A DNA stretch of 64,000 bases from Calditrichota bacterium (lineage in GTDB: Bacteria > Electryoneota > B3-LCP): contig JAGVQJ010000069.1 of assembly GCA_020051775.1 (NCBI GenBank), forward strand, positions 15,235 to 79,234. The letters are read 5' to 3'. The stretch's first letter is position 1, and the number at the start of each line of letters is the position of its first letter. This document shows positions 38,667 through 53,346 of this stretch, one piece after another. Made by a program: the position numbers and the translations under genes. The notes under the pieces are model-generated. The model worked only from the letters and a program-made list of their open reading frames with translations. It had not been told where the DNA came from and did no database searches.

Positions 38667-39128
38667 CTAATGCTCCTCCACCAAGTCCTCCTTGATCCTC
38701 TTTACGGCTTCCCCTACGCCATCCAGGACTGCCGACGAACATCCTTCTTGTAAAGTATAGGGATCTGCAACTTCAATTCCGTAAATTGTAATTTGCTCGG
38801 GGATCATCATCCCCATCATTTTCCCCAATTTCAGCGCTTCGGAAAAGCTCAAATCATGAAGGCAGGAGGCATGGAGATCGCCACTCAGCTCCTCCACTGA
38901 CATTTTCGTCACAGTTCCCGGTTCAGTGCGTCCGGTCATAAGGGCATCAATGATTATAGCTTTATCGAAACCGGTTATTTCATCCAGAATGCGCAATCCT
39001 CCGACGGAAGCGGTGCGAATTTCCACCTCTGGTGCGACGACCCATCTCCTCAATTGTTCCGCCGCCTCGCAACCAGCGCCGTCGTCGTAGAGGATGGGAT
39101 TACCCAAGCCCAGGATGACGGTTTTCAT
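38667..39128 (-). CDS. Hydrogenase maturation endopeptidase (HycI/HoxW family)
   Basis: 153 aa. MKTVILGLGNPILYDDGAGCEAAEQL typical of the family. Last gene of the hydrogenase operon. Confidence 0.8.
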   Translation of the reverse strand: MKTVILGLGNPILYDDGAGCEAAEQLRRWVVAPEVEIRTASVGGLRILDEITGFDKAIIIDALMTGRTEPGTVTKMSVEELSGDLHASCLHDLSFSEALKLGKMMGMMIPEQITIYGIEVADPYTLQEGCSSAVLDGVGEAVKRIKEDLVEEH

Positions 39129-40603
39129 GATCGCCGGAATACCTTCACGATTTCGCCGCGCGGATTTCGCAGATTAATTTCCAGCGGCATTTGCCCCGCT
39201 AAAGTATGCGTGGCACAACCGAAGCAGGGATCGTATGCGCGGAAGGCCATCTCCACCATGTTCAGAATGCCCTCAGTGACTTCCACGCCCGGTTTGATTA
39301 CCCCCTGCGCCGCTTTTTTGATGGACATGCTGATGGCGGCATTGTTGTTGGTCGTCCCTACAATCAAGTTGGCGTCGGTAACGATGCCTTTGTTATCGGT
39401 CACGTAGTGATGGTACAAAGTTCCTCGGGGAGCTTCCACCACACCCACGCCTTCATGCGGGATGTTCTTTGGGATAGTGCGAATGTCGGTGTCGCAGACG
39501 GAAGGATCTGACATCAATTCCAGGGCATGCTCGGCGGCATAAAGAAGCTCAATGACCCGCGCCCAATGAGTCGCCAGAGTTTGATGCACGGGAGTGCGGC
39601 CGGTTTTGTCGCCGGTCAGAGTTTCATAGAATTTTTCGTATTCGGCCTGTGCCAGCGGAGTAGCCATGCCCTCGGAAGCATTTAAGCGCGATAGCGGTGT
39701 AGCCCGATATACACCCGATTGCGGGCCGTCTACCAAACCCTTCCAACCGACCTGCTTTAAGTACGGATATTTCAGATAACTATACGATTCGACATGTTCG
39801 GCGATATGCTGCAAGTAGTCCTTGGCTTCGAACTTGGCGAATTCCTTGCCATCCGGCCCTACCACGCGGATCATGCCATCGTAGAAGTTCACTTTGTTGT
39901 TCTGATCCACCATACCCATATAATAGGTCTTGTGGGTATAAGCGTCAGAGAGGATCAGATCCACATAACCTTTATTGGCGATGACGATGTCGTGGAGCAC
40001 CTTAATAGTGAACTGCCCAAATTCCACAAAATCCTTGCAGTAACCAATCCACTTTTGGCGATCTTCATCCTTTAAACCGATGGTTACACCGCCCGGAATT
40101 GAGGAGACCTGGTGAATCTTCTTACCACCCAGCGCTTGAATGATCTCCTGAGCCTGCGCCCTATGCTTGATGACCCGCTTGCCGGCATCAATACCCACCT
40201 TGGCAATCAATCCCAGGATGTTGCGCTCCGCAACCGGCGCGCTCGGGCCGCAGACAAAATCTGGCCCCGCCAGGATATAGAAGTGCACGGCATGGTCGGC
40301 GGCGAAAAAGACGCTGTACAGAAGCTCGCGCAATTTCTTGGCGGTGGGAGGAATGTCCACGCCGTAAACGGCGTCGCAGGCCTTGGCGGAGGCCAGGTGG
40401 TGAGCTTCCGGACAGACTCCGCACAATCGCGTCGTGATGCGCGGCAGTTCCTCCACCGGACGTCCCTGGCAGAATTTCTCGAAGCCGCGCAATTCCGGCA
40501 CCTGGAAATACGCGTTGGCCACACTGCCATCGTCGTTAAGGAAGATATCTATCTTACCGTGACCTTCCAGTCGCGTTATGGGATCAATCTTGATCTGCTT
40601 CAT
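39125..40603 (-). CDS. [NiFe] hydrogenase large subunit, group 3 (MvhA-like)
   Basis: 492 aa. RLEGHGKIDIF, N-terminal RLCGVCPEAH (CxxC) and C-terminal DPCFGCATH Ni-Fe ligand motifs. Confidence 0.9.
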   Translation of the reverse strand: MKQIKIDPITRLEGHGKIDIFLNDDGSVANAYFQVPELRGFEKFCQGRPVEELPRITTRLCGVCPEAHHLASAKACDAVYGVDIPPTAKKLRELLYSVFFAADHAVHFYILAGPDFVCGPSAPVAERNILGLIAKVGIDAGKRVIKHRAQAQEIIQALGGKKIHQVSSIPGGVTIGLKDEDRQKWIGYCKDFVEFGQFTIKVLHDIVIANKGYVDLILSDAYTHKTYYMGMVDQNNKVNFYDGMIRVVGPDGKEFAKFEAKDYLQHIAEHVESYSYLKYPYLKQVGWKGLVDGPQSGVYRATPLSRLNASEGMATPLAQAEYEKFYETLTGDKTGRTPVHQTLATHWARVIELLYAAEHALELMSDPSVCDTDIRTIPKNIPHEGVGVVEAPRGTLYHHYVTDNKGIVTDANLIVGTTNNNAAISMSIKKAAQGVIKPGVEVTEGILNMVEMAFRAYDPCFGCATHTLAGQMPLEINLRNPRGEIVKVFRRS

Positions 40604-41586
40604 GATTGTTTCCTCACCTCCATCTGCCCGCGCCCCAATATGGACGCCGCCAGGTTAAAGCGGTAGAATGTCCCTACTGGATCGGTTAAAGTGGCCAGTA
40701 TGCTGTCAATCTCCTCCGGTTCAGAGGCGTCAATGACTGAGGACAATGCTGAAATCATCTTCGCGCCGGGATCGAGGCAGTCCGGAGGCGGCCCGTAGCA
40801 TCCTCGACAAGGGACATTGACGGCTGTGCACTTGGCTCCGCAACCGGATCGTGTCGCCGGCCCACAGCAGACGATCCCCTGATCCATAAGGCATTCTTTT
40901 GGGTTAGGAATGATTTCATGTGGGCGGACGAACTTCTTGATCTTTTTCTCCTTCCGCTCACGGCCGCATTCATCACAACAGGTTTTATCGCCGGCGCCCA
41001 GGATGGTTCCCTTGGGCGGTAACGGTTGGCCGTTTTTTAGGATGTCAATGACCGCTACGACTACGTTCAGGATTTGATCCGATTGGGGTGGGCAGCCTGG
41101 GACATAGTAATCAACATCCACAACCTGATTCAGCGGTTTCACAGTATCCCACATGGTGGGGATTTCAATCGTCCCTTCCGGCATCTTGTTGATCGGCTGC
41201 GGGAAGATGCCGCTCTCATTCACCGTGGAAGGCGATTGTTTGTAGACGTAATCCCAGATCTGCTGCTTGGTGAAGAGGTTGGCCAAGCCAGGAATGCAAC
41301 CTTCTTGAGCGCAGGATCCGAACGCCACCAACACTTTGGACTTGGCGCGCAGCAGTTTGGCCATGTGCTCGTTCTCGGAATTACGGATGGATCCATTGAA
41401 GAGGCACAGAGTGATTTCCCCATCGGGCATAGCTTCCACGTCTTTGTATTTAAAATCCATAGCCACTGGCCACAGCACGATATCGAAGAAGTCCGCGATG
41501 GTCAGGATATGCTCTTCAACGTCCACGACGGCTATTTCACAGCCGCCACAGGACGCCGCCCAATATAAGGCCAGTTTTGGTTTCAC
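40600..41586 (-). CDS. [NiFe] hydrogenase small subunit (MvhG-like) with extra C-terminal Cys-rich extension
   Basis: 328 aa. LALYWAASCGGCEIAVVD proximal-cluster motif plus further Cys clusters (GCPP, CCDECG, CCGPATRSGCGAKC). Confidence 0.8.
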   Translation of the reverse strand: MKPKLALYWAASCGGCEIAVVDVEEHILTIADFFDIVLWPVAMDFKYKDVEAMPDGEITLCLFNGSIRNSENEHMAKLLRAKSKVLVAFGSCAQEGCIPGLANLFTKQQIWDYVYKQSPSTVNESGIFPQPINKMPEGTIEIPTMWDTVKPLNQVVDVDYYVPGCPPQSDQILNVVVAVIDILKNGQPLPPKGTILGAGDKTCCDECGRERKEKKIKKFVRPHEIIPNPKECLMDQGIVCCGPATRSGCGAKCTAVNVPCRGCYGPPPDCLDPGAKMISALSSVIDASEPEEIDSILATLTDPVGTFYRFNLAASILGRGQMEVRKQS

Positions 41587-41695
41587 AGGTTATCTCCACT
41601 TATGTCATTGCGAGGAAGCCCTTCAGGGCTAACGAAGCAATCTCCTTCGGACCAGATTGCTTCACCGGCTAAAGTCGGGTTCGCAAAGACTTGTT

Positions 41696-42136
41696 TTATG
41701 CTGCGTTATAGGTGCCTTCAAGAATGCTGTCGCTGGTCAATTTCAAGGGACCCAGGGTTCGTATGGTCTGCGTGAAATCCGCTGAAAATCGAGCCCAGCG
41801 GTCGCCCTCGCTAGCGCTGACCCAGGTCAGGCGGAAGCGATCCGGATGAATGCCCAGATCGGCCAACACCCGTTTAATTAAGTGCGCTCGGCGCAGCATT
41901 TTGAAATTGCCTTCCTGATAATGGCAATCTCCGGGATGGCAGCCCGATACGATCACGCCGTCAGCGCCCGCCTGGAAAGCTTTGAACACGAAGACCGGAT
42001 CCATTCGCCCGGTGCACATCATGCGAATAACGCGAATATTGGGTGGATAGTGCAACCTGGAAGTGCCTGCCAGGTCGGCGCCGGTGTAAGAACACCAGTT
42101 GCACAGAAATCCGGCAATCTTGGGTTCCCAGCTCAT
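41696..42136 (-). CDS. mvhD: MvhD/FlpD-type hydrogenase iron-sulfur subunit
   Basis: 146 aa. FLCNWCSYTGADLAG...CTGRMDP...VSGCHPGDCHY conserved pattern. Confidence 0.85.
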   Translation of the reverse strand: MSWEPKIAGFLCNWCSYTGADLAGTSRLHYPPNIRVIRMMCTGRMDPVFVFKAFQAGADGVIVSGCHPGDCHYQEGNFKMLRRAHLIKRVLADLGIHPDRFRLTWVSASEGDRWARFSADFTQTIRTLGPLKLTSDSILEGTYNAA

Positions 42137-43938
42137 GCTTTCGCTCCTTGAGTCGGTTTGGCGAACAGTCCGTCAATTTCCGCCATGATCTGGGCGTTGG
42201 TGAAGCCTTTACCGGTGATAGCACCGGCGGGGCAAGCGGCTACACAGGTTCCGCACCCTTTGCACAGGGCGTCGTTGACGCGGGATATCTTTTTGTCCAG
42301 AACGAATTCGATGGCCCCATAAGGGCACAGGTTATTGCACATGCGGCACCCGCCGCAGAGCTCTTCGACTACCTCGGCGCGAATCGGATCCACTTCCACA
42401 TAACCACGGCTGATTAGCTGCAGGATGCGCGCCGCTGCTCCTTGTGCCTGAGCCACGCTGTCGGGAATGTCTTTAGGGCTTTGGCAGGCGCCGGCCAGGT
42501 AAATCCCATCCGTCATGGTGCTGGTGGGGTCCAGTTTGGGGTGACGTTCCAGGAAAAAACCGTCGGGGCTGCGCGATATTGAGAAGAGGCGACCCACTTC
42601 GTCGGCGTCATGCTGCGGTTCCATGGCTGCGCAAAGCACTACCATGTCCACGGGTATTTCTCGGAACTTACCGATCAAAGTGTCTTCAGCCCGAATCAGA
42701 AGCACGCCTTCATCCCGTTGCCCCCAACCGGCTTCCACGACTTCAGCCGCCTTGCCGCGAATCATGGTCACGCCTTCATCCAGCAGGCGGTGATAGAATT
42801 CTTCGTAGCCTTTCCCGAACGCGCGCATGTCAATGTAGAATTGATAGACCGCCGCCTTGGTGCGATCCTTGATTAAATGCGCCATCTTCAGAGCGTACAT
42901 GCAGCATACTCGCGAACAATACCGGTGGTGGTTCTCATCGCGGCTGCCGATGCAGTGGATGATTCCCACCGCGCGCGGTTCTTGCCCGTTCTTTAACACG
43001 ACCTGGCTGCCGGTCGGGCCGGTGGCATTCAACATGCGCTCGAATTCCAAAGCGCTGTAAACATTATCCAAGCGCCCATACCCATACTGGGCGAATTTCT
43101 TCAGGTCAATGGTCTGGAAGCCGGTTGAAATCAGGATCTGCCCCACGTCTACTTCGATCTCTTCCGGTTTTTGATTATAATTGATGGCGCCCGGTTCGCA
43201 ATATGTGGCGCAGACGCCGCAGCCGCCGGTCTGCATCTTAATGCAGGACTCCACGTCAATGACCGGCACTTTGGGGACGGATTGCAGCGTCTTGACGTAA
43301 ATGGAAGTTGTTGGCCCGGTGGGAAATTCCAGCGGCACCCCCTTTTCCGTGCGAGTGTCATCTATGACCTTGATGTACCCGGTGGGGCAAACAGCCGCGC
43401 AAGCACCGCAGGCAATGCACGTCTTGGATTCTTCATCGTATGGAGTCGCCACGCGACGTTTGATGCCGCGCCCGTCCATAGCGATGGCGCCCACACCCAC
43501 GATCTCATCGCAGACCCGAGTACACAGTCCGCATAAGATGCAGCCTTCCGTGCCCTCGCCAAAGCGTGATTTTTCCACGCCATACTGTTTGCCCAGCTCC
43601 TGCAGGAGAGGCACGTTGGAACTGCGGCCTAACAACAGCTCGATGATCATGGCGCGCACCCGACGGATGCGGTCGTTGATCGTCTCGATGACGATTCTAT
43701 CGGACACAGGGTAGTTGCAGGCAGTCACCAGGCGGCGGCGTTTGCCTTTGATTACTTCTACGCTGCATAACCGACAGGCGCCGTAGGGCTCCATCCAATC
43801 CACGTGGCATAAGGTTGGGATCTCGATACCCAGCTTATGCGCAGCTTGCAACACAGTGGAATTCTTTTCGATTTCCACCGAGCGCCCATCAATCGTCAAA
43901 TTAACCAATTTCTTATCCCCGGAAGCTTCACTTGACAT
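42133..43938 (-). CDS. Fusion protein: HydA/NuoG-type N-terminal [2Fe-2S]+[4Fe-4S] relay domain + C-terminal half of HdrA (second inserted-ferredoxin cluster, FAD domain part 2, C-terminal ferredoxin)
   Basis: 601 aa. N-terminus LVNLTIDGRSVEI...CHVDW..GACRLCSVEV, CILCGLCTRVCDE, CIACGACAAVCPTG. Then CIKMQTGGCGVCATYCEPGAI followed by HdrA hallmarks YGYGRLDNVYSALEFERML, CIGSRDENHHRYCSRVCCMYALK, DGIYLAGACQSPKDIPDSVAQA, and 2x CxxCxxCxxxCP at the C-terminus. Confidence 0.8.
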   Translation of the reverse strand: MSSEASGDKKLVNLTIDGRSVEIEKNSTVLQAAHKLGIEIPTLCHVDWMEPYGACRLCSVEVIKGKRRRLVTACNYPVSDRIVIETINDRIRRVRAMIIELLLGRSSNVPLLQELGKQYGVEKSRFGEGTEGCILCGLCTRVCDEIVGVGAIAMDGRGIKRRVATPYDEESKTCIACGACAAVCPTGYIKVIDDTRTEKGVPLEFPTGPTTSIYVKTLQSVPKVPVIDVESCIKMQTGGCGVCATYCEPGAINYNQKPEEIEVDVGQILISTGFQTIDLKKFAQYGYGRLDNVYSALEFERMLNATGPTGSQVVLKNGQEPRAVGIIHCIGSRDENHHRYCSRVCCMYALKMAHLIKDRTKAAVYQFYIDMRAFGKGYEEFYHRLLDEGVTMIRGKAAEVVEAGWGQRDEGVLLIRAEDTLIGKFREIPVDMVVLCAAMEPQHDADEVGRLFSISRSPDGFFLERHPKLDPTSTMTDGIYLAGACQSPKDIPDSVAQAQGAAARILQLISRGYVEVDPIRAEVVEELCGGCRMCNNLCPYGAIEFVLDKKISRVNDALCKGCGTCVAACPAGAITGKGFTNAQIMAEIDGLFAKPTQGAKA

Positions 43939-44008
43939 TACAATCCTCCGTACAGGTCACGGATTCAGAGGGACATCCACGGTAGTGTCCTTGCGTATCC
44001 AATAGTTA

Positions 44009-45889
44009 TCAGGCGGCTATGTCCGCGCCAATCCTCTTGGCGAAATCCTTGAACACATCAACAGCATCAACTTTGATCACTGCATGACGTTTGCAGATGG
44101 CGGCACAAGACCCGCATTTGACGCAGGTTTCAGGATTGATGCTATGCGGCTGTTTCAAATCGCCAACGATGCAGTTTTCCACTTTGCAAACGCGTTTGCA
44201 GATGGTGCAACCATTGCATTTATCTGCTTCAATAGTGTAGACAATCAGCGATCGGCAGGCTTTGCCCGGACAGCGCAGTTCCTTGATGTGAGTCTCGTAC
44301 TCATGAGCGAAATAACGGATGGTGGACATGACCGGATTAGGCGCCGATCCGCCTAAAGCACACAGGCTGGCTTCGGCGATGATCTGTGACATCTCCTCCA
44401 GCAATTGAATATCGCTGGGATGACCCAGTCCAGAGCAGATGCGGCCCAGGATGTTAGACATACTTTTCAGGCCTTCCCTGCAGGGGACGCATTTGCCACA
44501 GGATTCTCTGGATAGGAAGTCCACGTAATACTTGGCCATGTCAATCATGCAGTCAGTCTCGTCTAAGACAACCATACCGCCTGATCCCATCATGGAACCA
44601 GCCTCGGTCAGAGCATCGAAGTCCACCGGCAGGTCAAGCTGAGCTTCCGGCAGAAATCCGCCTGAGGGGCCGCCGGTCTGCACCGACTTGAACTTCTTGC
44701 CGTCCAGGATGCCGCCGCCGATATCGAAGATCATCTTGCGCAGGGTGATACCCATAGGGACTTCCACCAAACCGGTATTGGACACTTTACCGGCCAGCGA
44801 AAATACTTTAGTGCCGGTGCTTCCACCCCAGGGATTTTCAGACACATCACCGGTGCCGATGGACGCGAACCATTTTGCTCCTCGAGTCATGATGACGGGC
44901 ACATTGGCCCAGGTTTCCACGTTGTTCAACACGGTGGGTTTGTCCCACAGCCCATGCTCGACGGTGTGGATGTATTTCGCGCGGGGTTCACCCGTGCGGC
45001 CTTCGATGGAAGCCATCAACGCAGTGCTCTCCCCGCAAACGAAGGCGCCGGCGCCGCGTCGAACAGTGATATCGAAACTGAAATCCGTACCAAGAATATT
45101 TTTGCCCAGCAGACCGAATTCACGGGCTTGCTTAATGGCCGTGTGAAAGCGTTTGACGGCCAGAGGGTATTCCTTGCGTACGTAGATATAACCGTTGCTT
45201 GATCCCACTGCATAAGCGCCGATCAGCATCCCCTCGATAACCGAATGCGGGTCGCCTTCTACGATGCTGCGATCCATGAAAGCGCCGGGATCGCCTTCGT
45301 CAGCGTTGCAGATAACGTAGCGTACACCGTCTTCGCTATGCGCCTCCCGACAGGATAACCATTTAACGCCCGTGGGGAATCCGCCGCCGCCGCGCCCTCG
45401 CAATCCTGAACGATTAATCTCTTGTATGACTTCTTCCGGCTTCATAGAGGTCAGAACCCGTGCCAGCGCCTGGTAGCCGTCACGAGCGACATAATCCTCG
45501 ATCTTCTCCGGGTCAATGATGCCGCGATTACGCATGGCGATGAGCATTTGATCGCTGAAAAAGGGGATCTGGGACATCATGGGGACGACATCCTTGGTCA
45601 CCGGCTTCTTATACATCTTCTTAACCGCCGGACGCCCTTTCAATAAATGCTCTTCGGTGATGTAGGGGACATCGCCGATTTTCACCCGCGTGTAGAAGAT
45701 TTCCCCCGGCTGGACCAGCACGGTGGGGCCGCGGCCACAGAGAGCGTTGCAACCAGTAGGAACAACCAGGATTTCATCCTGTAGGTGATGCTTTTCGATC
45801 TCCTTTTGAAAAGCCTCCAACACCAGCAGGGAATCCTTCTCAACGCAGTTCTGACCGCTGCAGACCAACACGTGAAGTCTGAATGGCAT
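44009..45889 (-). CDS. NuoF-like NAD(P)H-binding flavoprotein (HydB-type, with N-terminal Trx-like [2Fe-2S] and C-terminal 2x[4Fe-4S])
   Basis: 626 aa. GLRGRGGGGFPTGVKW FMN/NADH motifs, ESCGKCVPCREG N3 cluster, C-terminal CNGCTIC..CVKCGSC ferredoxin. Confidence 0.9.
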   Translation of the reverse strand: MPFRLHVLVCSGQNCVEKDSLLVLEAFQKEIEKHHLQDEILVVPTGCNALCGRGPTVLVQPGEIFYTRVKIGDVPYITEEHLLKGRPAVKKMYKKPVTKDVVPMMSQIPFFSDQMLIAMRNRGIIDPEKIEDYVARDGYQALARVLTSMKPEEVIQEINRSGLRGRGGGGFPTGVKWLSCREAHSEDGVRYVICNADEGDPGAFMDRSIVEGDPHSVIEGMLIGAYAVGSSNGYIYVRKEYPLAVKRFHTAIKQAREFGLLGKNILGTDFSFDITVRRGAGAFVCGESTALMASIEGRTGEPRAKYIHTVEHGLWDKPTVLNNVETWANVPVIMTRGAKWFASIGTGDVSENPWGGSTGTKVFSLAGKVSNTGLVEVPMGITLRKMIFDIGGGILDGKKFKSVQTGGPSGGFLPEAQLDLPVDFDALTEAGSMMGSGGMVVLDETDCMIDMAKYYVDFLSRESCGKCVPCREGLKSMSNILGRICSGLGHPSDIQLLEEMSQIIAEASLCALGGSAPNPVMSTIRYFAHEYETHIKELRCPGKACRSLIVYTIEADKCNGCTICKRVCKVENCIVGDLKQPHSINPETCVKCGSCAAICKRHAVIKVDAVDVFKDFAKRIGADIAA

Positions 45890-45894
45890 GACTT

Positions 45895-46281
45895 CTATCC
45901 TCTCCGTTCGCTGCCGATCGCCAGCGCGAACTCCATGATGGGTTTGCCCGCCAACAGATGCTCGCCGAAAATTTTGCGGGTCTTCTCAGGCGTTAGATCA
46001 ATGTACTTTACCGGCGTTTCATCCGCCAACTCGACGGTGGCCATCGGTTCGTGGCTGCATAATCCTCCGCAACCGCTGGTAGTCACCAGGATATCGCCCA
46101 CGCCAGCCTTCTCCACTTCTTCTAAGACCGTCTTCATAATATCGCGAGCGCCGGCGGCAATGCCGCACGTGCCCATGTGCACGGTGATCCGGGCGCGGTG
46201 CTCGCCGCCTTCGCGCAGGGCGATGTGCTTGCGAGCGTCATCCCGCATTTTCGCCAGATCTTGAATCGTCAACTTAGGCAT
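45895..46281 (-). CDS. Thioredoxin-like [2Fe-2S] ferredoxin
   Basis: 128 aa. MGTCGIAAGA...SGCGGLCSHEP pattern. Confidence 0.7.
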   Translation of the reverse strand: MPKLTIQDLAKMRDDARKHIALREGGEHRARITVHMGTCGIAAGARDIMKTVLEEVEKAGVGDILVTTSGCGGLCSHEPMATVELADETPVKYIDLTPEKTRKIFGEHLLAGKPIMEFALAIGSERRG

Positions 46282-46396
46282 GATAGATCCTCTTGCTGTT
46301 CGTGCCGGGGTCGGTAATGACCCCGACTACAAAATCAGTGGATGACGTGATTTAATTCCGTAGTCAAGGTTGTCCCTGACCTTGACATGCTGCACT

Positions 46397-46915
46397 TTAA
46401 TCATCCCGTTCCTTGGGATGATGCTTTTCCGCTTCGGCGCGGCCTCGCAGTTCTTCGATTAACCTCGGAATCCGCTCCTGAGTTATCCGACCGATAACTT
46501 CCTCGCCGTTTATGATCATCACCGGAGCCAGACCACAAACACCCAGACAGGCCGCTGTCTCAAGACCGAAAAGCTTGTCCTCGGACACCTCGCCGACCTT
46601 CATCTTCAGCTCCTCCTCAAGCCTGTCAATAATCAGCGGCGATTGCTTGACATAGCAGAGCGTACCGTTGCACATGAGCATGTTGTACTTGGCCACGCCC
46701 CTGGGCTTGGTGCTGAAGGCGTTGTAGAAGGTGGCAATCTCCAGGATTTTGGGAACCGAAACCTTCAGATCCCCGGAAACTTCTTCCAAGATCTCCCGGG
46801 GCAAGTAATTATAATCCGATTGAACGTCGTGGAGCATTTCGATTAAGCATTCCTGCTTATGCTCCCAACGATCGAGAACTTCTTGTGCTGTTACCGGCAT
46901 ATCCTCAACCTCCAC
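46397..46915 (-). CDS. NuoE-like [2Fe-2S] subunit (HydC-type)
   Basis: 172 aa. ...MLMCNGTLCYVKQS...AACLGVCGLAPVMIING matches the NuoE/HndA fold. Confidence 0.85.
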   Translation of the reverse strand: MEVEDMPVTAQEVLDRWEHKQECLIEMLHDVQSDYNYLPREILEEVSGDLKVSVPKILEIATFYNAFSTKPRGVAKYNMLMCNGTLCYVKQSPLIIDRLEEELKMKVGEVSEDKLFGLETAACLGVCGLAPVMIINGEEVIGRITQERIPRLIEELRGRAEAEKHHPKERDD

Positions 46916-46918
46916 CAG

Positions 46919-47461
46919 TTATCGTAAACCGGCTTCGCCTTGCGCCAGGGATTCTTTCAAGGCGCGAATACCGGCTGCCGAACTTAGGCTGGTATGATTT
47001 AATTTTTCTTTAAATTCCCAGGTGGTGAAAATATATTCTCTGTTTTCCACCACATGGCTAAACCGAAATTCGACCTTTGGATTGCCTATGACCAGTGTGG
47101 TGATCGTCGCTCTCAAATCACCCAGCGGTCTACGGTCTATATGGTGGTATCCCATAGTGGCCGTGATTCGGGTTCCTGCTCCGAGAATTGATTCGATCTG
47201 CAAATCCCCGCCCGATATTTGCGCTGATTCCGCCAGAAAGGGCAGACCTAATCCGACCTGCTTAATCTTCTTCTTCGTGGTCATGAAGGGATCCCTGGCC
47301 GCTTGGAGGGTTGCTTCATCCATGCCCTTGCCGTCGTCGGTAATTTCGATGATCAAGCGGTCAGCAACAGGATCTTCCACCACCCTGATTTCCAATACCG
47401 TTGCCCCTGCCGTTACAGAATTCTCGGCAACGTCCAATATATGAAGGGAAAGATCATTCAT
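46919..47461 (-). CDS. Histidine-kinase-like ATPase domain protein (HATPase_c only)
   Basis: 180 aa. IIEITDDGKGMDE...GLGLPFL...GAGTRITA G-box motifs; no HisKA or sensor domain. Confidence 0.7.
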   Translation of the reverse strand: MNDLSLHILDVAENSVTAGATVLEIRVVEDPVADRLIIEITDDGKGMDEATLQAARDPFMTTKKKIKQVGLGLPFLAESAQISGGDLQIESILGAGTRITATMGYHHIDRRPLGDLRATITTLVIGNPKVEFRFSHVVENREYIFTTWEFKEKLNHTSLSSAAGIRALKESLAQGEAGLR

Positions 47462-48183
47462 TATTTACTTAGCGCGGCTTTTAATCCTTCAAATGAAATT
47501 TCATTCGTCTCCAATTCCGTCACGCCCCGCCCAATGGCCTCCAGCTCATGCGCATCCGAAGAACACACAAAGGGAAATGACTCATATTCCGGAAAGGTTT
47601 CTCGTGCCTTGGCTACGCTAAAATTCCAACTAATTTCCAGAGCGTCCAGCTTCAGGTCCGGCGGAATGAAACCCAACTGCGTTATGATGCCGAATCCTTC
47701 CCGGTCTATATGCGCTGCGACTGCCAACCCCTCCGCGCGGTGGATCACTCGCACGATATCCTCGAGGCTCAGCGTCGTTGCCCCAATCAACAGACGCTGG
47801 GAGAAATCTGTTATGTTATCCTTTTCGTCTGCCACGATCTGCATGCCGAAGCGTTCGGGATCGTTTTGGCCGGGTAGAGCGCCGTAGACCTTGGCTTGCA
47901 CTTCCAGTGCAGCTTCCACCGCTGGAAACCACCCCAGGATGTGCACTTCCTCTCGGCTGGTGATTTCCATTCCGGGGATGACCAACACACCGGTCTTGCG
48001 CCCTGCCTTTACGGCGGCCCAGGTGTTCTCGGCGCTATTGTGATCACACACCGCAATCACTTTTAAATCTTTTTGAGCAGACGCCTGAACAATCGCCTTG
48101 GGTGACATGAGCAAGTCAGCGCAGGGTGACAGGCACGTGTGAATGTGCAGGTCAGCTCGGATGCGCTTCAGCACGGTTGGCAT
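47461..48183 (-). CDS. PHP-domain metal-dependent phosphoesterase
   Basis: 240 aa. DLHIHTCLSPCADL...VIAVCDHNS His/Asp motifs of the PHP family. Confidence 0.75.
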   Translation of the reverse strand: MPTVLKRIRADLHIHTCLSPCADLLMSPKAIVQASAQKDLKVIAVCDHNSAENTWAAVKAGRKTGVLVIPGMEITSREEVHILGWFPAVEAALEVQAKVYGALPGQNDPERFGMQIVADEKDNITDFSQRLLIGATTLSLEDIVRVIHRAEGLAVAAHIDREGFGIITQLGFIPPDLKLDALEISWNFSVAKARETFPEYESFPFVCSSDAHELEAIGRGVTELETNEISFEGLKAALSK

Positions 48184-48520
48184 TTGTCGCCAGCAACCGG
48201 TTTAACCTGAAGGCCAGCTCGAAAGCGGACAGCGGGCTACCCAAGAGCGGAATCTTTTCCGCCTCGGCCTTTTGTAGAGTCTCAGGTAGTGGCTCTCGAC
48301 CATTGGCTAATAGGATTGCAGTAAGCTCTTTTAGACTGGCCACTGCAGCGATGTTGGGATGTGCCTGGATCGTGATCCATATTTCACCCGCTCGGGTATT
48401 GGCCATCACATCGGAGAGCAGATCCCCGCAGTATCCACCCACGACGGGTCGCTCGGTCAGCTCCTTGCAACAAAAGACCTTCAGTTCCAATGAGCCGATG
48501 ATTTGTTTCAGCATAGTCAT
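48152..48520 (-). CDS. DRTGG-domain protein
   Basis: 122 aa. Similar to the second DRTGG-like ORF at 50295-50654 (GDLLSDVMA vs ADLMSDVLA; IPLLGSPLSAFE vs IPLLCTSLGMFE). Confidence 0.6.
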   Translation of the reverse strand: MTMLKQIIGSLELKVFCCKELTERPVVGGYCGDLLSDVMANTRAGEIWITIQAHPNIAAVASLKELTAILLANGREPLPETLQKAEAEKIPLLGSPLSAFELAFRLNRLLATNANRAEAHPS

Positions 48521-48556
48521 AGTAGACTCATCCCATTCGTATAATCCAAGTGTAAC

Positions 48557-49849
48557 CTATTCTTTATCGCCTTCGGCAGGCACCTTGTAAATTCTTTTTA
48601 ATTCTTCCAGGTGAGCCTGGCCGTGAAAGATGCAATCGCTCACCTCTGCCTGGCCTCGCGAAATGTCTTCGGCCAGCGTATTACAATCGGGAGCGCCACA
48701 GACTCCGCAATTGATCATGGGAAAGAGCGCCAAGGCCTGCTCCTTAACCCGCCGCCGCGCCAGAGCCTCGATTAGGTTGACTTCAGGTCCGGAATAGCTC
48801 TTGGGCTTCTGCCGCTCCTCCAGGTGAAAGAACCCTTGATGGTAGAGCTTGCGAAGCTGATCTACCTCCAAGGGCGAAGTGTGGATTTTGCGTTGTTCTA
48901 AAAGAATGACTTTGTGGTAGGCCATGTAATAATTCTCTACCGTTAAGGGGCCACCGATGCAACCGCCCCGGCAACTCCAGCATTCAGCATAATCGGTATC
49001 TTTTAATTTGCCCGATTCAATATCATCCAAAACTCGGACTATCTCATAGAGTCCGGAGACCGTAATCCAGGATTGTTCTCTTAAGGCTGATCCCGATCCC
49101 CCCAACCGCGCCCAGCGCAGTCCAGTTCCCATGGTGGGCATGGGCCAACGATAAGCATCTGGTTGTTGATTGAGGAATGCCAACAAAGGATTATAGAGGT
49201 CGCGGATCGAGACTGCGCCCGAGATCGTTTGGTGATCCGGGTCATTTTCTCCCTGAGTTACCATGGCCGGACAAGGCGTTAAATAAATAGCATTGAAATC
49301 TTTTGGGCCTTTCATCTGCCCATTGCTGCGCTTTTGGCGCAAGGCCTCTACAGCGATCACCTCCGGCCCCTTCAAGGGAATCAACTGGTTGATCAGTGAC
49401 GGGTAGCGAATCTGTATCAACCGCACAATCGCCGGGCAAAAGCTGGAGATCAGCGGTTTGGGCCCGCGGTAGCTCAGGATAAACTCCCGGATCGCCCAAC
49501 TCACCCAGTCGCAATACTGAGTGATATCTACTGCTTCTTGAAAACCAATGCGCGAAAGGGCCTGCAAAATTTCTTCGGGTGAATATTCTCGCGGGAACTG
49601 TCCCAATAACGCCGGCGAAGGTACGGCCACGCGATATTTCAATTTCTCCAACTGCACCCAAGCATCGGTTTGGGGCGCAATGGCCTGATGGGGGCATACT
49701 TGCAGACATCGGCCGCAATCCACACACCGTTCTTCGATATTAATCGCCTTCCCATTGCGAATGCGAATAGCCTGAGTGGGACAGATTCTCAGGCAGTGCA
49801 TTTTCCCATCACAAAGTTCGGGAATGATTTTCAACATCGGAGAATGCAT
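48557..49849 (-). CDS. [FeFe]-hydrogenase-like protein with degenerate H-cluster motifs (HydS-type putative sensory hydrogenase)
   Basis: 430 aa. Two N-terminal ferredoxin motifs (CLRICPTQAI, CVDCGRCLQVCPHQAI). L1 SFCPA instead of TSCCP, L2 TPCPAM, L3 ECWSCRGGCIGGP retained. Extra C-terminal CGVCGAPDC. Confidence 0.7.
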   Translation of the reverse strand: MHSPMLKIIPELCDGKMHCLRICPTQAIRIRNGKAINIEERCVDCGRCLQVCPHQAIAPQTDAWVQLEKLKYRVAVPSPALLGQFPREYSPEEILQALSRIGFQEAVDITQYCDWVSWAIREFILSYRGPKPLISSFCPAIVRLIQIRYPSLINQLIPLKGPEVIAVEALRQKRSNGQMKGPKDFNAIYLTPCPAMVTQGENDPDHQTISGAVSIRDLYNPLLAFLNQQPDAYRWPMPTMGTGLRWARLGGSGSALREQSWITVSGLYEIVRVLDDIESGKLKDTDYAECWSCRGGCIGGPLTVENYYMAYHKVILLEQRKIHTSPLEVDQLRKLYHQGFFHLEERQKPKSYSGPEVNLIEALARRRVKEQALALFPMINCGVCGAPDCNTLAEDISRGQAEVSDCIFHGQAHLEELKRIYKVPAEGDKE

Positions 49850-49855
49850 GCTTGT

Positions 49856-50308
49856 TTATGTCAAAGTGATGGAGACTCTTAAGGTGGTTCCCTGCCCTAA
49901 TTTTGAGGTTAAGTCGAACTTGTCAGCATTACGCTTGATATTGGGTAAACCCATCCCCGCGCCAAACCCTTTTTCACGCATTGCTTCGGTCGCGGTTGAC
50001 CACCCTTCCTGCATGGCTAAATTGATATCGGGAATGCCCTGCCCCTGATCTTCTACAATCAAAACTAATTCTGAAGAGTGGATTTCCAGCGTCATGGAGC
50101 CTTTACCGGCGTACATGACTATGTTCATTTCGGCTTCATAGCAGCAGATAGCCAATCGCCGGATCAGGTCCGGAGAAATCTGGATTTCTTTCAGTAAATC
50201 TTTGATTTTGGTCGAGACATTACCCGCGGTGATGAAATTCCCGCCCTGTACTTCCCAACGCTGCTTCAGGAGCGGAACCCGATCACTTTGTCGGTCATCG
50301 GGCCGCAT
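49856..50308 (-). CDS. Histidine-kinase-like ATPase domain protein (second copy)
   Basis: Start placed at MRPDDRQ (50308). ...LIVEDQGQGIPD...GFGAGMGLPNI...GQGTTLRV. Confidence 0.65.
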   Translation of the reverse strand: MRPDDRQSDRVPLLKQRWEVQGGNFITAGNVSTKIKDLLKEIQISPDLIRRLAICCYEAEMNIVMYAGKGSMTLEIHSSELVLIVEDQGQGIPDINLAMQEGWSTATEAMREKGFGAGMGLPNIKRNADKFDLTSKLGQGTTLRVSITLT

Positions 50309-50654
50309 GGCCGTCGTCCCGAATTCCGGCGCGGTATAACCGGCCGCAACATTCAAACATGCCCAAGGAGGTGCACAACAATGGGATACCCCGCTCCTCC
50401 GCTTTCGTAACCACCTCGATGTCGGGATGTTTGCCCCGCACATATATAATAGCCTTGATATCAGCGATGTCTGCCGTCGAGATGGATTGCACGGTAGCCA
50501 GGCCGGTCAGCAGCAAAGTTCCCGGATGAGAAAAGGCGAGTACATCGCTCATCAGATCGGCAGCGCCGGCGGTTTCTATCACCAGGTCATCCAGGCGCTG
50601 AGTCCCAGCAAGAGTCTGGGCTTCCAGCAATTTTTCTACTTCGCGAAGTTTCAT
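50295..50654 (-). CDS. DRTGG-domain protein (second copy)
   Basis: 119 aa. Paralogous to 48152-48520; overlaps the downstream ATPase gene start by 14 nt. Confidence 0.6.
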   Translation of the reverse strand: MKLREVEKLLEAQTLAGTQRLDDLVIETAGAADLMSDVLAFSHPGTLLLTGLATVQSISTADIADIKAIIYVRGKHPDIEVVTKAEERGIPLLCTSLGMFECCGRLYRAGIRDDGHAAR

Positions 50655-50661
50655 GGAAATT

Positions 50662-51548
50662 CTATCCGAGTAATCTTCCCGGGTCTTTGCGGGTACGATA
50701 GATAACCTGTTTTTCCCCCAGCATTATGGTGCGACGGTGGGGGATCCGCACCGAAGGACAGTTAGACCAGCACTGCCCGCAGCCGGTACAGATTTCCGGG
50801 TCCACATAACGAGCCTTCTTGTGGATTTTCACCTTGAAATTGCCAATGTAACCCGATATTCCCACCACCTCAGACCAAGTGAAGAGTTTGATATTCTTAC
50901 GATGCCCCACCGAAACCATCTTGGGGGTTAGAATGCAGGCGGAACAATCCAAAGTGGGGAATGTCTTGTCGAAGTACGCCATATTCCCGCCAATGGTCGG
51001 CTCACGATCCACCAGGTACACAGGGTATCCGGCATTAGCAATTTCCAGCGCCGCCTGAATGCCGGAAATGCCTCCTCCCAGGATCAGCGAATTGGCGTTG
51101 ATGGGGACGCGGGATACTTGCATCGGTTCGTGCAGTCGCACCCGGAAAACCGCGGCGCGTCCCAAGTCGGTAGCCTTGGCCGTGGCTTCGACCCGGTCAT
51201 TATGCACCCAGGAACAATGCTCGCGCACATTAGCCATTTGAAATAGATAGCGATTCAGTCCGGCCTCCTCGCAGGCGGTACGAAACGTTAGCTCGTGCAT
51301 TAATGGCGAACATGCTGCCACAACCACACGCGTCAATCCCAGCGTGCGGATATCCTCTTTGATCAAATCCTGGCGGTGTTGGAACACATGAATTTGTAAT
51401 CCCGCGAAACGACGACATCGGGGATTTGCCTCATGGCGTCGCGTACTTTGGTAACGTCAACCGTTGTGGATATGTTGACGCCGCAGTGGCAGATATAAAA
51501 GCCAATCTTCTCCGGGGATTTCTTGCCGTTACCATTACCGTTGCTCAT
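50662..51548 (-). pseudogene. hdrA: hdrA N-terminal half (N-domain, FAD-binding part 1, first cluster of inserted ferredoxin) interrupted by an apparent -1 frameshift near 51365-51372; gene ends inside the inserted-ferredoxin domain
   Basis: Track ORFs 51363-51548 (…GFYICHCGVNISTTVDV…DYKFMCSNTARI*) and 50662-51387 (…QDLIKEDI…NVREHCSWVH…LILGGGISGIQAALEIANAGYPVYLVDREPTIGG…CTGCGQCWSNCP) are consecutive HdrA segments in different frames. Restoring one C in the run ccgcc(c)agg gives FMCSNTAQDLIKEDI, which matches the canonical HdrA order. Confidence 0.65.
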
Positions 51549-52423
51549 ATTTTCGTCTCCAAAAGCTTGGCTACGTTTGCGGCTAAGGGTACCAGGTGTT
51601 TATCAATTCCCATTTGTGAAATACTGCTACCCATTGCCACACCCAACAGTTCGGTAAAGAATAGGGTGGGGATGGTATAGGAATGGCCATAGGATTGTTG
51701 GAGTTCATCCATGTGCATGTCCAGGTTTGCCTGGCACATGGGACAAGTTGTCAGAATGACATCGGCGCCGTTCTCCTGCGCGCAACGGAGCAGTTCATCG
51801 GTCAATTTCAAGGCGACGTCTGCAAAGGTGAACATGAGCATGCCTCCACAGCAGCGTACTTTATTGGGGTAGTAAACCGACTCAGCCCCCAGCGCTTCGA
51901 ACAGTTTGTCCATGGTGACTGGATTCTCAGCGTCGTCAAATGTGGCATAAGGGCGCACGATTTGGCAGCCATAGTACTGCGCAATTTTCAAACCCTTCAG
52001 CGATACTTTGGCTTTTTGCGCGATGGCTTCGATTCCCACGTCGTTGACCAGCACGTCTAAGGGATGACGCACCCGGCAACCTAGGTTATAGGATAAACCA
52101 ACCTGACTCAAGGCTGAATTTACATGATCGAAGAGCTGCGACTTCTCCGCCATGATTTTATGCGTCTTGGCCAATACCGTGTAACAGGCGCTGCATGGCG
52201 CCACGATGTCCAATCCAGCTTTCTCCGCCAAAGCTAAATTGCGCGCTGAAATGGCCAACGAGACCGTTTCCTTGACGGACATGTAAGCAGTCGCGCCGCA
52301 GCAATTCCAATCAACGATTTCGCTTAAACCCAATCCCAAGTCGGAAAACACCGACTTAAGTGATTTATCGTAGGAATCGGCCGAAGCCTCCAGGCTGCAG
52401 CCAGGATAGTAGGTATAATTCAT
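51545..52423 (-). CDS. hdrB: Heterodisulfide reductase subunit B (two CCG domains)
   Basis: 292 aa. YYPGCSL...NCCG and YYGCQ...RCCGG patterns. Confidence 0.85.
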   Translation of the reverse strand: MNYTYYPGCSLEASADSYDKSLKSVFSDLGLGLSEIVDWNCCGATAYMSVKETVSLAISARNLALAEKAGLDIVAPCSACYTVLAKTHKIMAEKSQLFDHVNSALSQVGLSYNLGCRVRHPLDVLVNDVGIEAIAQKAKVSLKGLKIAQYYGCQIVRPYATFDDAENPVTMDKLFEALGAESVYYPNKVRCCGGMLMFTFADVALKLTDELLRCAQENGADVILTTCPMCQANLDMHMDELQQSYGHSYTIPTLFFTELLGVAMGSSISQMGIDKHLVPLAANVAKLLETKI

Positions 52424-53142
52424 CTTTGGACTCCGCCGGAATCCGGGACCTCGCCATCAACGGCGCGATACCCGATCATTCCTTCAATATATTCCTTTTT
52501 ATGGGTTTCACGCGGTACGGCGAAAGTGTCTGCCTTGGCGATGATCTTGCGGATATCTTCGAGGGCGCGAATGCGTTTGGGTGCGATGGAAATCCTTCCC
52601 AATTTCATCAACTTGAAGCCCATTGGCGCCATCCGGAATAACCTCATGAGGTCGGTCTTCAGGTAAAACTGCATCATCAATCCCAACTCGAAGTTTCGAC
52701 CATACCGGTTTACATTATCCACGAACTTGGCAGAGAGGGCATACACGGGGAATTTATCGGGGTAAATTTTGCGCTCCATCGCGATGCGCTTCAGAGCATA
52801 TATGATATCAGTAACTTTGATGCTTGAAGGACAGCGGGAAGTGCATTGGTAGCAGGAGGCGCAAATCCAGATGGAGCGGGATTGTAATATCTTCTCGATT
52901 AATCCAGCGCGAAACAGAGCAATTAATTCACGGGGTTGAACATCCATGGCATAGGATACCGGACAGGAACCGGAGCAAGTACCACATTGAATACAGCGAT
53001 TGATCTTCTCGCCACCGGGGATGTCCATGACCTGATTAAGAAATTCCAGCCGCAGTTCGGATTCCTTGCGCGTCACCATGCCAGGTTTGCGGTCATCCAG
53101 TTGCTGTACTGTTTTCGGAGCCACAGCGGATCTCTCCTTCAT
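52420..53142 (-). CDS. hdrC: Heterodisulfide reductase subunit C
   Basis: 240 aa. CIQCGTCSGSCP and CASCYQCTSRCP [4Fe-4S] motifs. First gene of the operon. Confidence 0.85.
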   Translation of the reverse strand: MKERSAVAPKTVQQLDDRKPGMVTRKESELRLEFLNQVMDIPGGEKINRCIQCGTCSGSCPVSYAMDVQPRELIALFRAGLIEKILQSRSIWICASCYQCTSRCPSSIKVTDIIYALKRIAMERKIYPDKFPVYALSAKFVDNVNRYGRNFELGLMMQFYLKTDLMRLFRMAPMGFKLMKLGRISIAPKRIRALEDIRKIIAKADTFAVPRETHKKEYIEGMIGYRAVDGEVPDSGGVQR

Positions 53143-53231: not shown

Positions 53232-53249
53232 ATGTTAGTAATATAACAT
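53232..53249. promoter_or_regulatory. Perfect 18-bp palindrome ATGTTA-gtaata-TAACAT, candidate operator ~90 bp upstream of hdrC
   Basis: Read directly in the AT-rich divergent intergenic region 53143-53607. Confidence 0.5.
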
Positions 53250-53346
53250 GTACTGCCGATTTTGTCAAGCATTTTCTTATTTTTTTTCAATAGGCTTAAA
53301 GTGCCGTATTGGAGCTATTCGAGAGAAGGCACTAATTGTTCATACT

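Follow-up and report, generated by a model that had tools for sequence, protein, structure and literature searches.

A split HdrA flavoprotein may link a [NiFe] hydrogenase operon to a bifurcating-type NuoEF module in uncultured bacteria: a predicted supercomplex

Introduction

Electron bifurcation is the route by which strict anaerobes obtain cheap low-potential reductant. Here we describe an operon of 17 genes in a 64,000-nucleotide stretch of DNA from a Calditrichota bacterium (assembly GCA_020051775.1, contig JAGVQJ010000069.1, positions 15,235 to 79,234; hereafter the window), which combines genes for the HdrABC subunits, an Mvh-like [NiFe] hydrogenase with its MvhD adaptor, a NuoEF-type module and a HydS-like protein. 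Its hdrA gene is split within the part that encodes the inserted ferredoxin domain, and the C-terminal half is fused to a BfuA-like iron-sulfur (Fe-S) domain. On balance, we consider it probable that the operon encodes a single cytoplasmic supercomplex, in which the [NiFe] hydrogenase and HdrBC are joined to a bifurcating (Bfu) NAD(H)/ferredoxin module through a re-engineered HdrA; judged from the genes, the products likely form a physical complex. Known parts (Mvh-Hdr, Bfu/HydBC and a HydS cassette) thus appear in an arrangement for which we found no description, and the operon suggests that HdrA, HydBC and the [NiFe] hydrogenase are building blocks that can be combined in another way. An earlier note on this DNA, made from the sequence alone, had drawn attention to the locus, and its claims are taken up below where the evidence bears on them.

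HdrA is divided inside its inserted ferredoxin domain and fused to a BfuA-like domain

Domains were assigned with Pfam and NCBIfam profile scans and with searches against PDB sequences. In the PDB searches, residues 165/207-596 of the fusion protein match methanogen HdrA structures over HdrA residues ~238-657 (E=1e-113 to 3e-115), while residues 12-195 match the short BfuA subunit of WorABCSL, the tungsten enzyme of Acetomicrobium mobile (9mqx_A, E=2e-44); both halves of the HydA/NuoG-N::HdrA-C fusion that the earlier note had read from this 601-aa protein are hence recovered. Matches of its N-terminus to those of HydA, NuoG and FdhA are weaker (7t2r_A, E=2e-24). The BfuA/NuoG-like Fe-S domain occupies residues 1-195 and bears the sites for one [2Fe-2S] cluster (C44/55/58/74) and two [4Fe-4S] clusters (C133-143, C174-184). 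It is followed by the inter-motif loop and second motif of the inserted ferredoxin domain (C232, C240, C243, C247), then by the remaining half of the FAD domain and finally by the C-terminal ferredoxin domain, such that the BfuA-like domain is joined within ~45 residues of the second inserted-ferredoxin motif. Between residues 75 and 132 the fusion has neither Cys nor His, i.e., the His-ligated NuoG-type cluster is absent from it, and for this reason we count its BfuA-like part as Type 2-like in the scheme of Schut et al.

The complementary part of HdrA is supplied by the third gene of the operon, which encodes its N-terminal domain, half of its FAD (TrxR-like) domain, namely the first, and, from the inserted ferredoxin domain, the first motif (CxxCxxCxxxCP). 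This motif closes the protein, CTGCGQCWSNCP, and its Cys residues are kept in 5/5 orthologues. Together the N-half and the fusion span HdrA completely, with the break inside the inserted ferredoxin domain, and neither half is a complete flavoprotein: all segments of the single FAD/6x[4Fe-4S] polypeptide of MvhADG-HdrABC are present, but on two polypeptides, with HdrA residues 1-277 (after repair of the deletion described below) on the N-half and ~238-651 on the fusion. Their genes are nine genes apart and have the HydS-like cassette, NuoE, a small ferredoxin (Fd)-like protein and NuoF encoded between them.

A large protein-database search recovered at least 120 clusters of fusion homologues. 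Among the matches listed, 119 of 120 extend over 97% or more of the query, with 62-83% identity, metagenome-assembled genomes (MAGs) labelled Ignavibacteria, Bacteroidota and Sumerlaeia are represented, and all 28 cluster-ligating Cys are invariant in 120/120. K351 of the CCMYAxK motif is likewise invariant in a 61-sequence alignment of the fusion, and the BfuA-like part averages ~47% identity across homologues despite its invariant ligands. In a library of representatives at 50% identity, the matches of at least 12 distinct clusters begin at query residue ~4-13, with identity down to 36%, and these clusters consequently share the BfuA::HdrA junction.

The same loop of HdrA hosts other modules in sister operons

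Two Ignavibacteria loci (L003:7652-11065 and L004) encode an hdrCB-hdrA-mvhDGA operon with a single-chain HdrA of 1137 aa, parts of which are 61-65% identical to the two halves found in the window. In this protein an NfnB/GltD-like module (Fer4_20 + Pyr_redox_2) separates motif 1 from motif 2 within the inserted ferredoxin domain, and thus sits at the very place where hdrA of the window is split and its Bfu module attached. At the level of tblastn matches, Thermodesulfobacteriota and unclassified loci (L008-L014) have the same ~1.5-kb gap at the inter-motif site. As sister HdrAs carry an NfnB-like module there, the inter-motif loop can be seen as a recurrent docking point for pyridine-nucleotide modules.

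A further variation is seen in a Coatesbacteria MAG (JAUVZD010000008.1; L005:525-15313), where one operon holds both a long HdrA (1140 aa, with the NfnB-like insertion) and the split form; its NuoF is fused to the small Fd-like protein and an NfnB/GltD-like domain in a chain of 1060 aa.

The NuoEF module has the features of a bifurcating-type core

The NuoF-like protein combines an N-terminal [2Fe-2S] domain, Complex1_51K (PF01512, E=5e-46), NADH_4Fe-4S (PF10589, E=6e-31) and a C-terminal Fer4 region with 2x[4Fe-4S]. Its residues 3-606 align end to end with residues 4-596 of A. mobile NiFe-HydB, with every cluster Cys kept, and it is in this sense colinear with bifurcating HydB proteins, as the HydB architecture assigned to it in the earlier note had implied. 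The Cys of the N3-type [4Fe-4S] cluster (C464/467/470/510) align with those of 7t2r_B, and the Cys of the extra clusters (C10/15/47/51; C558-568, C589-599) and of the B2/Zn site (C540/545/573) are identical in A. mobile HydB. What sets bifurcating BfuB proteins apart from plain NuoF/HoxF types is the [2Fe-2S] at the N-terminus, the 2x[4Fe-4S] at the C-terminus and the Cys of the B2/Zn site (Schut et al., PMC9304861), and the window NuoF has both the NuoF core and these additions. A NuoE-like [2Fe-2S] subunit corresponding to BfuC is encoded next to it, and fusion residues 12-195 provide a BfuA, the Fe-S subunit that links the core to the third-substrate module. Taken together, these features suggest that the NuoEF module is a bifurcating-type Bfu core. 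The small Fd-like protein, which may be a HydD-type extra subunit, is kept at 53-81% identity in all related loci.

The [NiFe] hydrogenase, MvhD and HdrBC

The remaining electron-transfer subunits comprise what is expected of an Mvh-Hdr system: an HdrC with 2x[4Fe-4S], an MvhD, Mvh-type hydrogenase subunits with the CxxC pairs of the [NiFe] site and an HdrB with two CCG motifs, both complete (C9, C41C42, C77xxC80; C153, C191C192, C227xxC230). The large subunit has the motifs RLCGVCPEAHH (59-69) and DPCFGCATH (458-466), the latter followed by a 26-aa cleavable C-terminal extension, and resembles A. mobile HydL (E=7e-120) and MvhA (5odc_F, E=4e-117) to much the same degree. The best NCBIfam matches of the hydrogenase and adaptor subunits are VhuA, VhuG and VhuD, all below equivalog cut-offs. 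On this similarity to PDB and NCBIfam entries, rather than by HydDB, the hydrogenase can be classed as a group-3c-like [NiFe] enzyme. The matches of NuoF, of the BfuA-like N-terminus and of the large subunit agree with the earlier suggestion that the H-domain of a HydABC-type module has been replaced by HdrA and a group-3 [NiFe] hydrogenase.

Both the large subunit and NuoF have their greatest similarity to subunits of the A. mobile NiFe-HydABCSL, and NuoE attains its best NCBIfam score against HoxE. Such affinities could be accounted for if the operon encoded a plain NAD+-linked [NiFe] hydrogenase (Hox-like or NiFe-HydABCSL-like), in which HdrA is a mere conduit and HdrBC a side branch, with no tandem bifurcation. 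We regard this as improbable. The HdrA cofactor ligands, the Lys of CCMYAxK and both HdrB non-cubane motifs are strictly conserved, which points to a working Hdr module; hdrCB is co-encoded in every related split-operon locus compared; and BfuB keeps bifurcation-specific clusters that are missing in Hox/Nuo-type proteins (PMC9304861).

The operon recurs in independent assemblies across phyla

The operon order was found, with small variation in the accessory genes, in independent assemblies (loci L001, L002, L016/L017, L018, L019, L020 and L021), and the proteins of syntenic operons are 35-85% identical across assemblies labelled as several different phyla. All 17 genes are present in a MAG labelled Chlorobiaceae (L002) and in one from Sumerlaeia (L018). 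The closest genome match for the operon is a Zixibacteriota MAG; in the Zixibacteria locus L001 the fusion is 83% identical, the first DRTGG gene was not detected and the contig ends in mvhG. The Bacteroidota contig (L019) begins partway through the cluster, L016/L017 are without the DRTGG and PHP genes, and in a 3.18-Mb contig (L020) and an Aminicenantes MAG (L021) the HydS-like protein is 43% identical. The Coatesbacteria locus (L005) is without the HydS cassette and keeps hdrA-N, nuoE, nuoF (fused to the NfnB-like domain), the fusion and mvhDGA. The split-hdrA arrangement is hence common in uncultured bacteria, occurring under the labels Zixibacteria, Ignavibacteria/Chlorobi-like, Bacteroidota, Sumerlaeia, Aminicenantes and Coatesbacteria.

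Since the order recurs independently and the cluster Cys are invariant in 120 fusion homologues, the operon is the product of neither chance nor misassembly. In particular, the synteny search of related assemblies proposed in the earlier note returned the same gene order in independent assemblies and thereby excludes the chimeric misassembly that the note had considered as a refutation.

Unrelated genes lie between the fusion and mvhD at two loci, namely one for a 23S-rRNA-intervening-sequence protein (L018:11824-12210) and one for a radical-SAM protein (L019:6705-7637). The fusion-mvhD junction evidently tolerates insertions.

A possible electron path and its main rival

From the gene content, the fusion, the split site, the ligands and the synteny described above, we infer how the complex might assemble, the direction and coupling of its electron flow and the nature of one acceptor, a disulfide. 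The two HdrA polypeptides would have to associate to rebuild the flavoprotein, and their association would set the BfuA-like wire beside the inserted ferredoxin domain, through which low-potential electrons leave HdrA. H2 would be oxidised at the [NiFe] site and its electrons passed via MvhG and MvhD to the FAD of HdrA. There they would be bifurcated: one electron would run downhill through HdrC to HdrB, where it would reach the non-cubane clusters and reduce a disulfide, and the low-potential electron would leave by the inserted ferredoxin domain to the BfuA-like wire and the NuoEF core rather than to free ferredoxin. The NuoEF core would in turn reduce NAD+ and ferredoxin, and the whole process might be reversible. 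In methanogen super-assemblies the inserted ferredoxin domain contacts the polyferredoxin and is the low-potential outlet of HdrA (PMC13518236), and in the BCRII complex it feeds BamC/BamB (preprint 10.64898/2026.04.10.717634). We favour a connection through the low-potential arm because the inserted ferredoxin domain is this outlet and because the same loop hosts NfnB-like modules. The bifurcating Hdr/[NiFe] supercomplex predicted in the earlier note accordingly gains from the fusion, from a split that brackets nuoEF and from conservation across phyla, which strengthen its gene content and modular logic; its function stays at the level of prediction.

More tentatively, and with rather less confidence than in the complex itself, we propose that these operons might represent a widespread and hitherto unrecognised class of tandem bifurcating hydrogenases, in which the HdrA and Bfu sites would act in series via the low-potential arm of HdrA, with the two-polypeptide ferredoxin domain as the link, H2 oxidation and the reduction of a disulfide driving the simultaneous reduction of NAD+ and ferredoxin (or the reverse) and a HydS-like protein in control. 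If so, nature would offer two examples of coupled bifurcation modules, first BCRII and then, with the opposite topology, this system.

Several observations weigh against the path through the low-potential arm. It would seem a waste of energy to send electrons that are already at or below ~-500 mV into another bifurcating module. Many of the lineages bearing the operon are generally described as fermentative, and H2 evolution would be expected of them. A single-chain AlphaFold2 (AF2) model of the fusion, built from the 61-sequence alignment (mean pLDDT 60.5, pTM 0.36), is confident only in the BfuA-like domain and too poor in the HdrA half to give inter-cluster distances. The hdrA N-half of this genome carries a frameshift, and unless this is an assembly error the system may for that reason be inactive here. 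Finally, in BCRII the electrons of the Bfu module reach the FAD from the C-terminal ferredoxin domain and the MvhD-like adaptor and not from the inserted domain (10.64898/2026.04.10.717634), and the covalent position of a module therefore need not dictate the electron path.

This last point leads to the main rival, an input role of the NuoEF module with a wiring like that of BCRII. Here NuoEF/Bfu would confurcate NADH and reduced ferredoxin, and the electrons would reach the FAD of HdrA by way of the C-terminal ferredoxin domain and MvhD, belonging either to the same protomer or to its partner. The hydrogenase could then be another input or else an outlet that evolves H2, the high-potential electron would go to HdrBC, and an external low-potential acceptor would still be served by the inserted domain. 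Several bearer lineages are generally regarded as fermenters that have to dispose of NADH and reduced ferredoxin, which would suit this wiring. BCRII, the sole characterised combination of HydBC-type and HdrA-type modules, works in this manner, and the BfuA-like part without a His-ligated cluster falls in the Type 2 BfuA-like class to which BamI and WorA belong. Yet the BfuA-like domain is fused ~45 residues from the second inserted-ferredoxin motif and not to the C-terminal domain or MvhD, and NfnB-like modules sit in the very same loop of sister HdrAs. Moreover, H2 at -414 mV against confurcation of NADH and ferredoxin at ~-400 mV offers no obvious gain, and no very-low-potential acceptor module like BamBC is encoded in the operon or the flanking ORFs scanned. 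We consequently hold the BCRII-like wiring to be unlikely, if still worth more credence than a plain NAD+-linked hydrogenase, and retain as preferred the supercomplex in which the NuoEF module is reached through the inserted ferredoxin domain.

The HydS-like protein and its accessory cassette

The first half of the operon includes a gene for a HydS-like homologue of [FeFe]-hydrogenases, whose H-domain is preceded by a 2x[4Fe-4S] domain at the N-terminus and followed, at the C-terminus, by a Cx2Cx4Cx16C motif (381/384/389/406). This motif and the Cys of the [4Fe-4S]H cluster (138, 193, 293, 297) are invariant in 120 homologues. The position of the TSCCP motif reads S-(N/I/S)-(A/V/F)-C-P, such that the proton-relay Cys is missing in all homologues. 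Position 196 is Met in the window protein and 8 close relatives versus Lys in 111/120 homologues (MPCxxK motif); we take this Lys to be the equivalent of K358 of CpI, which anchors the 2Fe subcluster, and the Met196 subclade may no longer bind that subcluster. A Pfam scan found no PAS domain in the 430-aa protein, and longer homologues (475-569 aa) bear an extra domain. The HydS-like protein can best be seen as a degenerate and probably regulatory form of HydS. That it is instead the missing catalytic [FeFe] subunit is unlikely, given its score of 102.6 against an [FeFe]-family cut-off of 450 bits, the absence of the relay Cys and, here, of the Lys.

The HydS-like gene is accompanied by genes for two DRTGG, two histidine kinase (HK)-like ATPase and one PHP protein. 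The first DRTGG protein is kept in L002, L018, L020 and L021, and the second has orthologues at related loci. The homologues of the first HK-like ATPase are 141-151 aa long, wherefore its true start is probably Met45, at ~50311. Genes for DRTGG, PHP and HK-like proteins accompany HydABC operons in Firmicutes. Group C3 genes have been reported beside group A3 (HydABC) genes (PMC11406978). By analogy, the DRTGG, HK-like, HydS-like and PHP genes are probably a co-inherited regulatory cassette responsive to H2 or redox state. The sensory [FeFe]-hydrogenase cassette of the earlier note is upheld as regards the HydS-like domains, and needs amending in that the protein here is without the 2Fe-binding Lys.

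The frameshift in the N-half of hdrA

The start codon of the hdrA N-half overlaps the hdrB stop codon (ATGA). An alignment of the DNA with two relatives revealed a 1-nt deletion near 51373/51374 (AACACC-GCCAGG), which leaves a leader frame of 52 codons separate from an ORF (open reading frame) of 241 aa; the missing first ~50 residues lie just upstream in the other frame. When repaired, the gene (51548-50662) encodes 295 aa that cover HdrA residues 1-277 and are colinear with the intact orthologues of 290-294 aa in L001, L002, L005 and L016. Hence, the identity given to this gene in the earlier note is sound, being confirmed by the HdrA match, and the 241-aa ORF on which that identity was read is a truncation due to the deletion, which the note had overlooked. 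Selenocysteine read-through as an explanation of the 157-nt gap before the 241-aa ORF is ruled out by the alignment, which shows a single-base deletion.

This lesion, along with the loss in the window HydS-like protein of a Lys kept by 111/120 homologues, might be seen as the mark of an operon that is decaying and non-functional in this genome; alternatively, the genes might be co-transcribed and encode separate enzymes. We give these options the least weight of those considered, as very improbable. A gene fusion and a split flavoprotein cannot work apart, the stretches to either side of the frameshift retain ~83% identity to the Zixibacteria orthologue and show no other lesion, and the other 16 genes of the operon are intact. 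In view of this flanking conservation, the frameshift may be an assembly indel or else a very recent inactivating mutation.

Operon layout and genomic neighbourhood

The 17 ORFs, taken from a program-made list, are all on the minus strand and fill positions 38667-53142 of the window (Table 1). Adjacent genes overlap by 1-32 nt or are separated by gaps of at most 115 nt, with a 149 nt overlap arising only with the longest ORF of the first HK-like ATPase. The earlier note had listed the same co-directional genes in the same order, joined by overlaps or short gaps, and all of these ORFs are in place; every one of its domain assignments was reproduced by the profile and PDB searches, and of the first HK-like ORF it had the ATPase identity right, though probably not the start.

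Table 1. Features of the operon, with genes numbered in order of transcription; coordinates are those of the window
No.	Feature	Coordinates	Strand	Length (aa)	Evidence
1	hdrC, 2x[4Fe-4S] (Cys 50/53/56/60, 94/97/100/104)	52420..53142	-	240	TIGR03290 E=3e-24, below curated cut-off
2	hdrB, two CCG domains	51545..52423	-	292	PF02754 E=1.5e-30; TIGR03288 E=3e-61, below cut-off
3	hdrA N-half	50662..51548	-	241 (ORF)	ORF matches 5odc_A residues 51-277, E=3e-82
4	DRTGG-domain protein 1	50295..50654	-	119	PF07085 E=1e-5
5	Histidine-kinase-like ATPase 1	49856..50443	-		HATPase_c/HATPase_c_2
6	HydS-like degenerate [FeFe]-hydrogenase homologue	48557..49849	-	430	Fe_hyd_lg_C; PF04060 E=2e-10
7	DRTGG-like protein 2	48152..48520	-	122	E=3e-4, below gathering score
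8	PHP-domain protein	47461..48183	-	240	PF02811, PF13263
9	Histidine-kinase-like ATPase 2	46919..47461	-	180	PF02518 E=3e-13
10	NuoE/HydC/BfuC-like [2Fe-2S] subunit (Cys 82, 87, 123, 127)	46397..46915	-	172	PF01257 (2Fe-2S_thioredx) E=7e-41
11	Small thioredoxin-like ferredoxin-fold protein, three Cys	45895..46281	-	128	Weak PF01257, E=0.0015
12	NuoF/HydB/BfuB-like FMN/NAD(H) subunit	44009..45889	-	626	7t2r_B E=1e-232
13	Fusion protein (BfuA-like :: HdrA C-half)	42133..43938	-	601	Fer2_4 + Fer4 + Fer4; PDB matches to HdrA and 9mqx_A
14	mvhD (FlpD)	41696..42136	-	146	PF02662 E=6e-53
15	[NiFe] small subunit (MvhG/VhuG-like)	40600..41586	-	328	Oxidored_q6; NF045875 E=4e-63, below cut-off
16	[NiFe] large subunit (MvhA-like)	39125..40603	-	492	NiFeSe_Hases; PDB matches
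17	HycI-type hydrogenase maturation endopeptidase	38667..39128	-	153	PF01750 E=1e-10
	Best sigma-70-like promoter match, TTGACA-17-TATATT + TG extension	53240..53268	-		11/12 matches, ~100 nt upstream of hdrC start

The packed and overlapping junctions, the best promoter-like site ahead of hdrC and the failure of a promoter/terminator scan to find a strong internal terminator within the operon suggest that the 17 genes form one operon. The promoter is a consensus match, and as neither promoter-like nor terminator site counts in the region exceed those in shuffled controls, the scan lends weak support only. The GC content is 0.52-0.56 over most of the operon; the one dip is in the 2-kb bin at the upstream end, part of which is intergenic DNA.

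Both neighbours are on the plus strand: a gene for a beta-helix protein sorted by the type IX secretion system (T9SS) at 35907-38546 on the left and one for a UbiA prenyltransferase at 53476-54492 on the right. T9SS C-terminal sorting domains or PorZ-like propellers occur at window 33671-38546 and 61319-63706 (subtilase and beta-helix/NosD-like proteins), and these flanking proteins fit a host from the FCB (Fibrobacteres-Chlorobi-Bacteroidetes) group, of a Zixibacteria-like kind. Genes of riboflavin biosynthesis, ribD and a ribBA fusion, are found at window 57792-60815, ~5 kb upstream of the flavin-rich operon and on the opposite strand. Elsewhere, three segments of the window (4001-6000, 20001-24000 and 26001-28000) have a GC content of 0.42-0.46 against ~0.52-0.54, and might be foreign DNA or hold different gene classes.

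Prior reports and significance

No description of this split-hdrA hydrogenase-diaphorase arrangement was found in the open-access literature, prior genomic mention elsewhere being possible. The remark of the earlier note that it was not aware of any characterisation in this form holds to that extent, and we add to it precedents that had gone unmentioned, i.e., NiFe-HydABCSL, Bam/BCRII and the Desulfotignum clusters (PMC4046663). Bacteria of this kind have received generic Mvh/Hdr annotations, for example in an Ignavibacteriae MAG reconstruction (PMC7509429). The survey of the Bfu family (PMC9304861) includes Bam-Bfu and has no Hdr-Mvh-Bfu type, nor does a supplementary text file of it have Hdr or Ignavibacteria entries. 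According to the 2026 preprint on BCRII (10.64898/2026.04.10.717634), no earlier report had described a supercomplex with two bifurcation modules.

Should the proposed wiring be true, "Group 3c hydrogenase" calls in many metagenomes would need reinterpretation, with H2 directly tied to the NAD(H) and ferredoxin pools, and the system would be a natural test case for the gating of two bifurcating sites in series. Being widespread, conserved and experimentally tractable, it is of relevance to the fields of both electron bifurcation and hydrogenases.

Comparison with characterised systems

The closest characterised systems are Mvh-Hdr, NiFe-HydABCSL and BCRII, each of which is wired differently. 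With MvhADG-HdrABC and the Vhu/Fdh-Hdr assemblies (PDB 5ODC, 8RVU, 7BKB) the operon shares HdrC, HdrB, MvhD, the [NiFe] subunits and the maturation protease, and in HMMER alignments the window proteins cover methanogen HdrA residue for residue at ~50% identity, estimated by eye. It differs in that hdrA is split into genes nine positions apart, with the C-half fused to a BfuA-like domain and the NuoEF module encoded inside the split, and in that no polyferredoxin (MvhB/VhuB) is present. Since the hosts are bacterial, the CoM/CoB disulfide is not expected as the substrate.

The NiFe-HydABCSL of A. mobile (PDB 7T2R; Type 3 NiFe-Bfu) provides the best PDB matches for NuoF and the large subunit, and resembles the window system in having a BfuBC core and an H-cluster-less BfuA-like subunit that leads to a group-3 [NiFe] hydrogenase. 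However, the Type 3 hallmark, a His-ligated A3 cluster touching the [NiFe] small subunit, is not seen in the fusion: its BfuA-like domain is without the His-ligated cluster, looks like the short type found in WorA (9mqx_A) and continues into HdrA, with MvhD and HdrABC interposed between the hydrogenase and the Bfu module.

BCRII of Geobacter metallireducens, Bam[(BC)2DEFGHI]2, is the only characterised enzyme with HydBC-type and HdrA-type modules in one complex, and additionally shares an MvhD-like adaptor and an HdrBC-like subunit. Here a [NiFe] hydrogenase takes the place of the tungsten-containing BamBC, and Pfam scans found no AOR-family gene in the operon or the scanned flanking ORFs. HdrA is split, whereas BamE is a fused HdrA dimer; the distal cluster is disrupted in BamD, whereas the window HdrB is complete. 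The Bfu module of BCRII is connected by way of BamI, the C-terminal ferredoxin domain and BamF; the BfuA-like domain described here is instead fused at the inserted ferredoxin domain.

Operons that combine HydABC (group A3 [FeFe]) with a group C HydS share the order NuoE, small Fd-like, NuoF and BfuA-like after the HydS-like gene. In the window, the HdrA C-half stands where HydA has its catalytic H-domain, and the HydS-like protein is without PAS and without the Lys358 equivalent. In FlxABCD-HdrABC, NAD(H)-module genes lie beside hdrA, and the complex is predicted to be NADH-linked and bifurcating. Sulfate reducers such as Desulfotignum phosphitoxidans have nuoEFG-mvhD-hdrA clusters, also predicted to encode NADH-linked bifurcating complexes (PMC4046663); by their description these are without [NiFe] hydrogenase genes, a split hdrA or a HydS cassette. 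The long-HdrA operons of Ignavibacteria, Coatesbacteria and apparently Thermodesulfobacteriota share the flanking hdrCB and mvhDGA, at ~54-73% identity in the Ignavibacteria loci, and have an extra pyridine-nucleotide module in the same loop. There, however, the flavoprotein is a single chain (1137-1140 aa in the long form) with an FAD/NAD(P)H NfnB-like module, and NuoEF, the HydS cassette and the split are absent.

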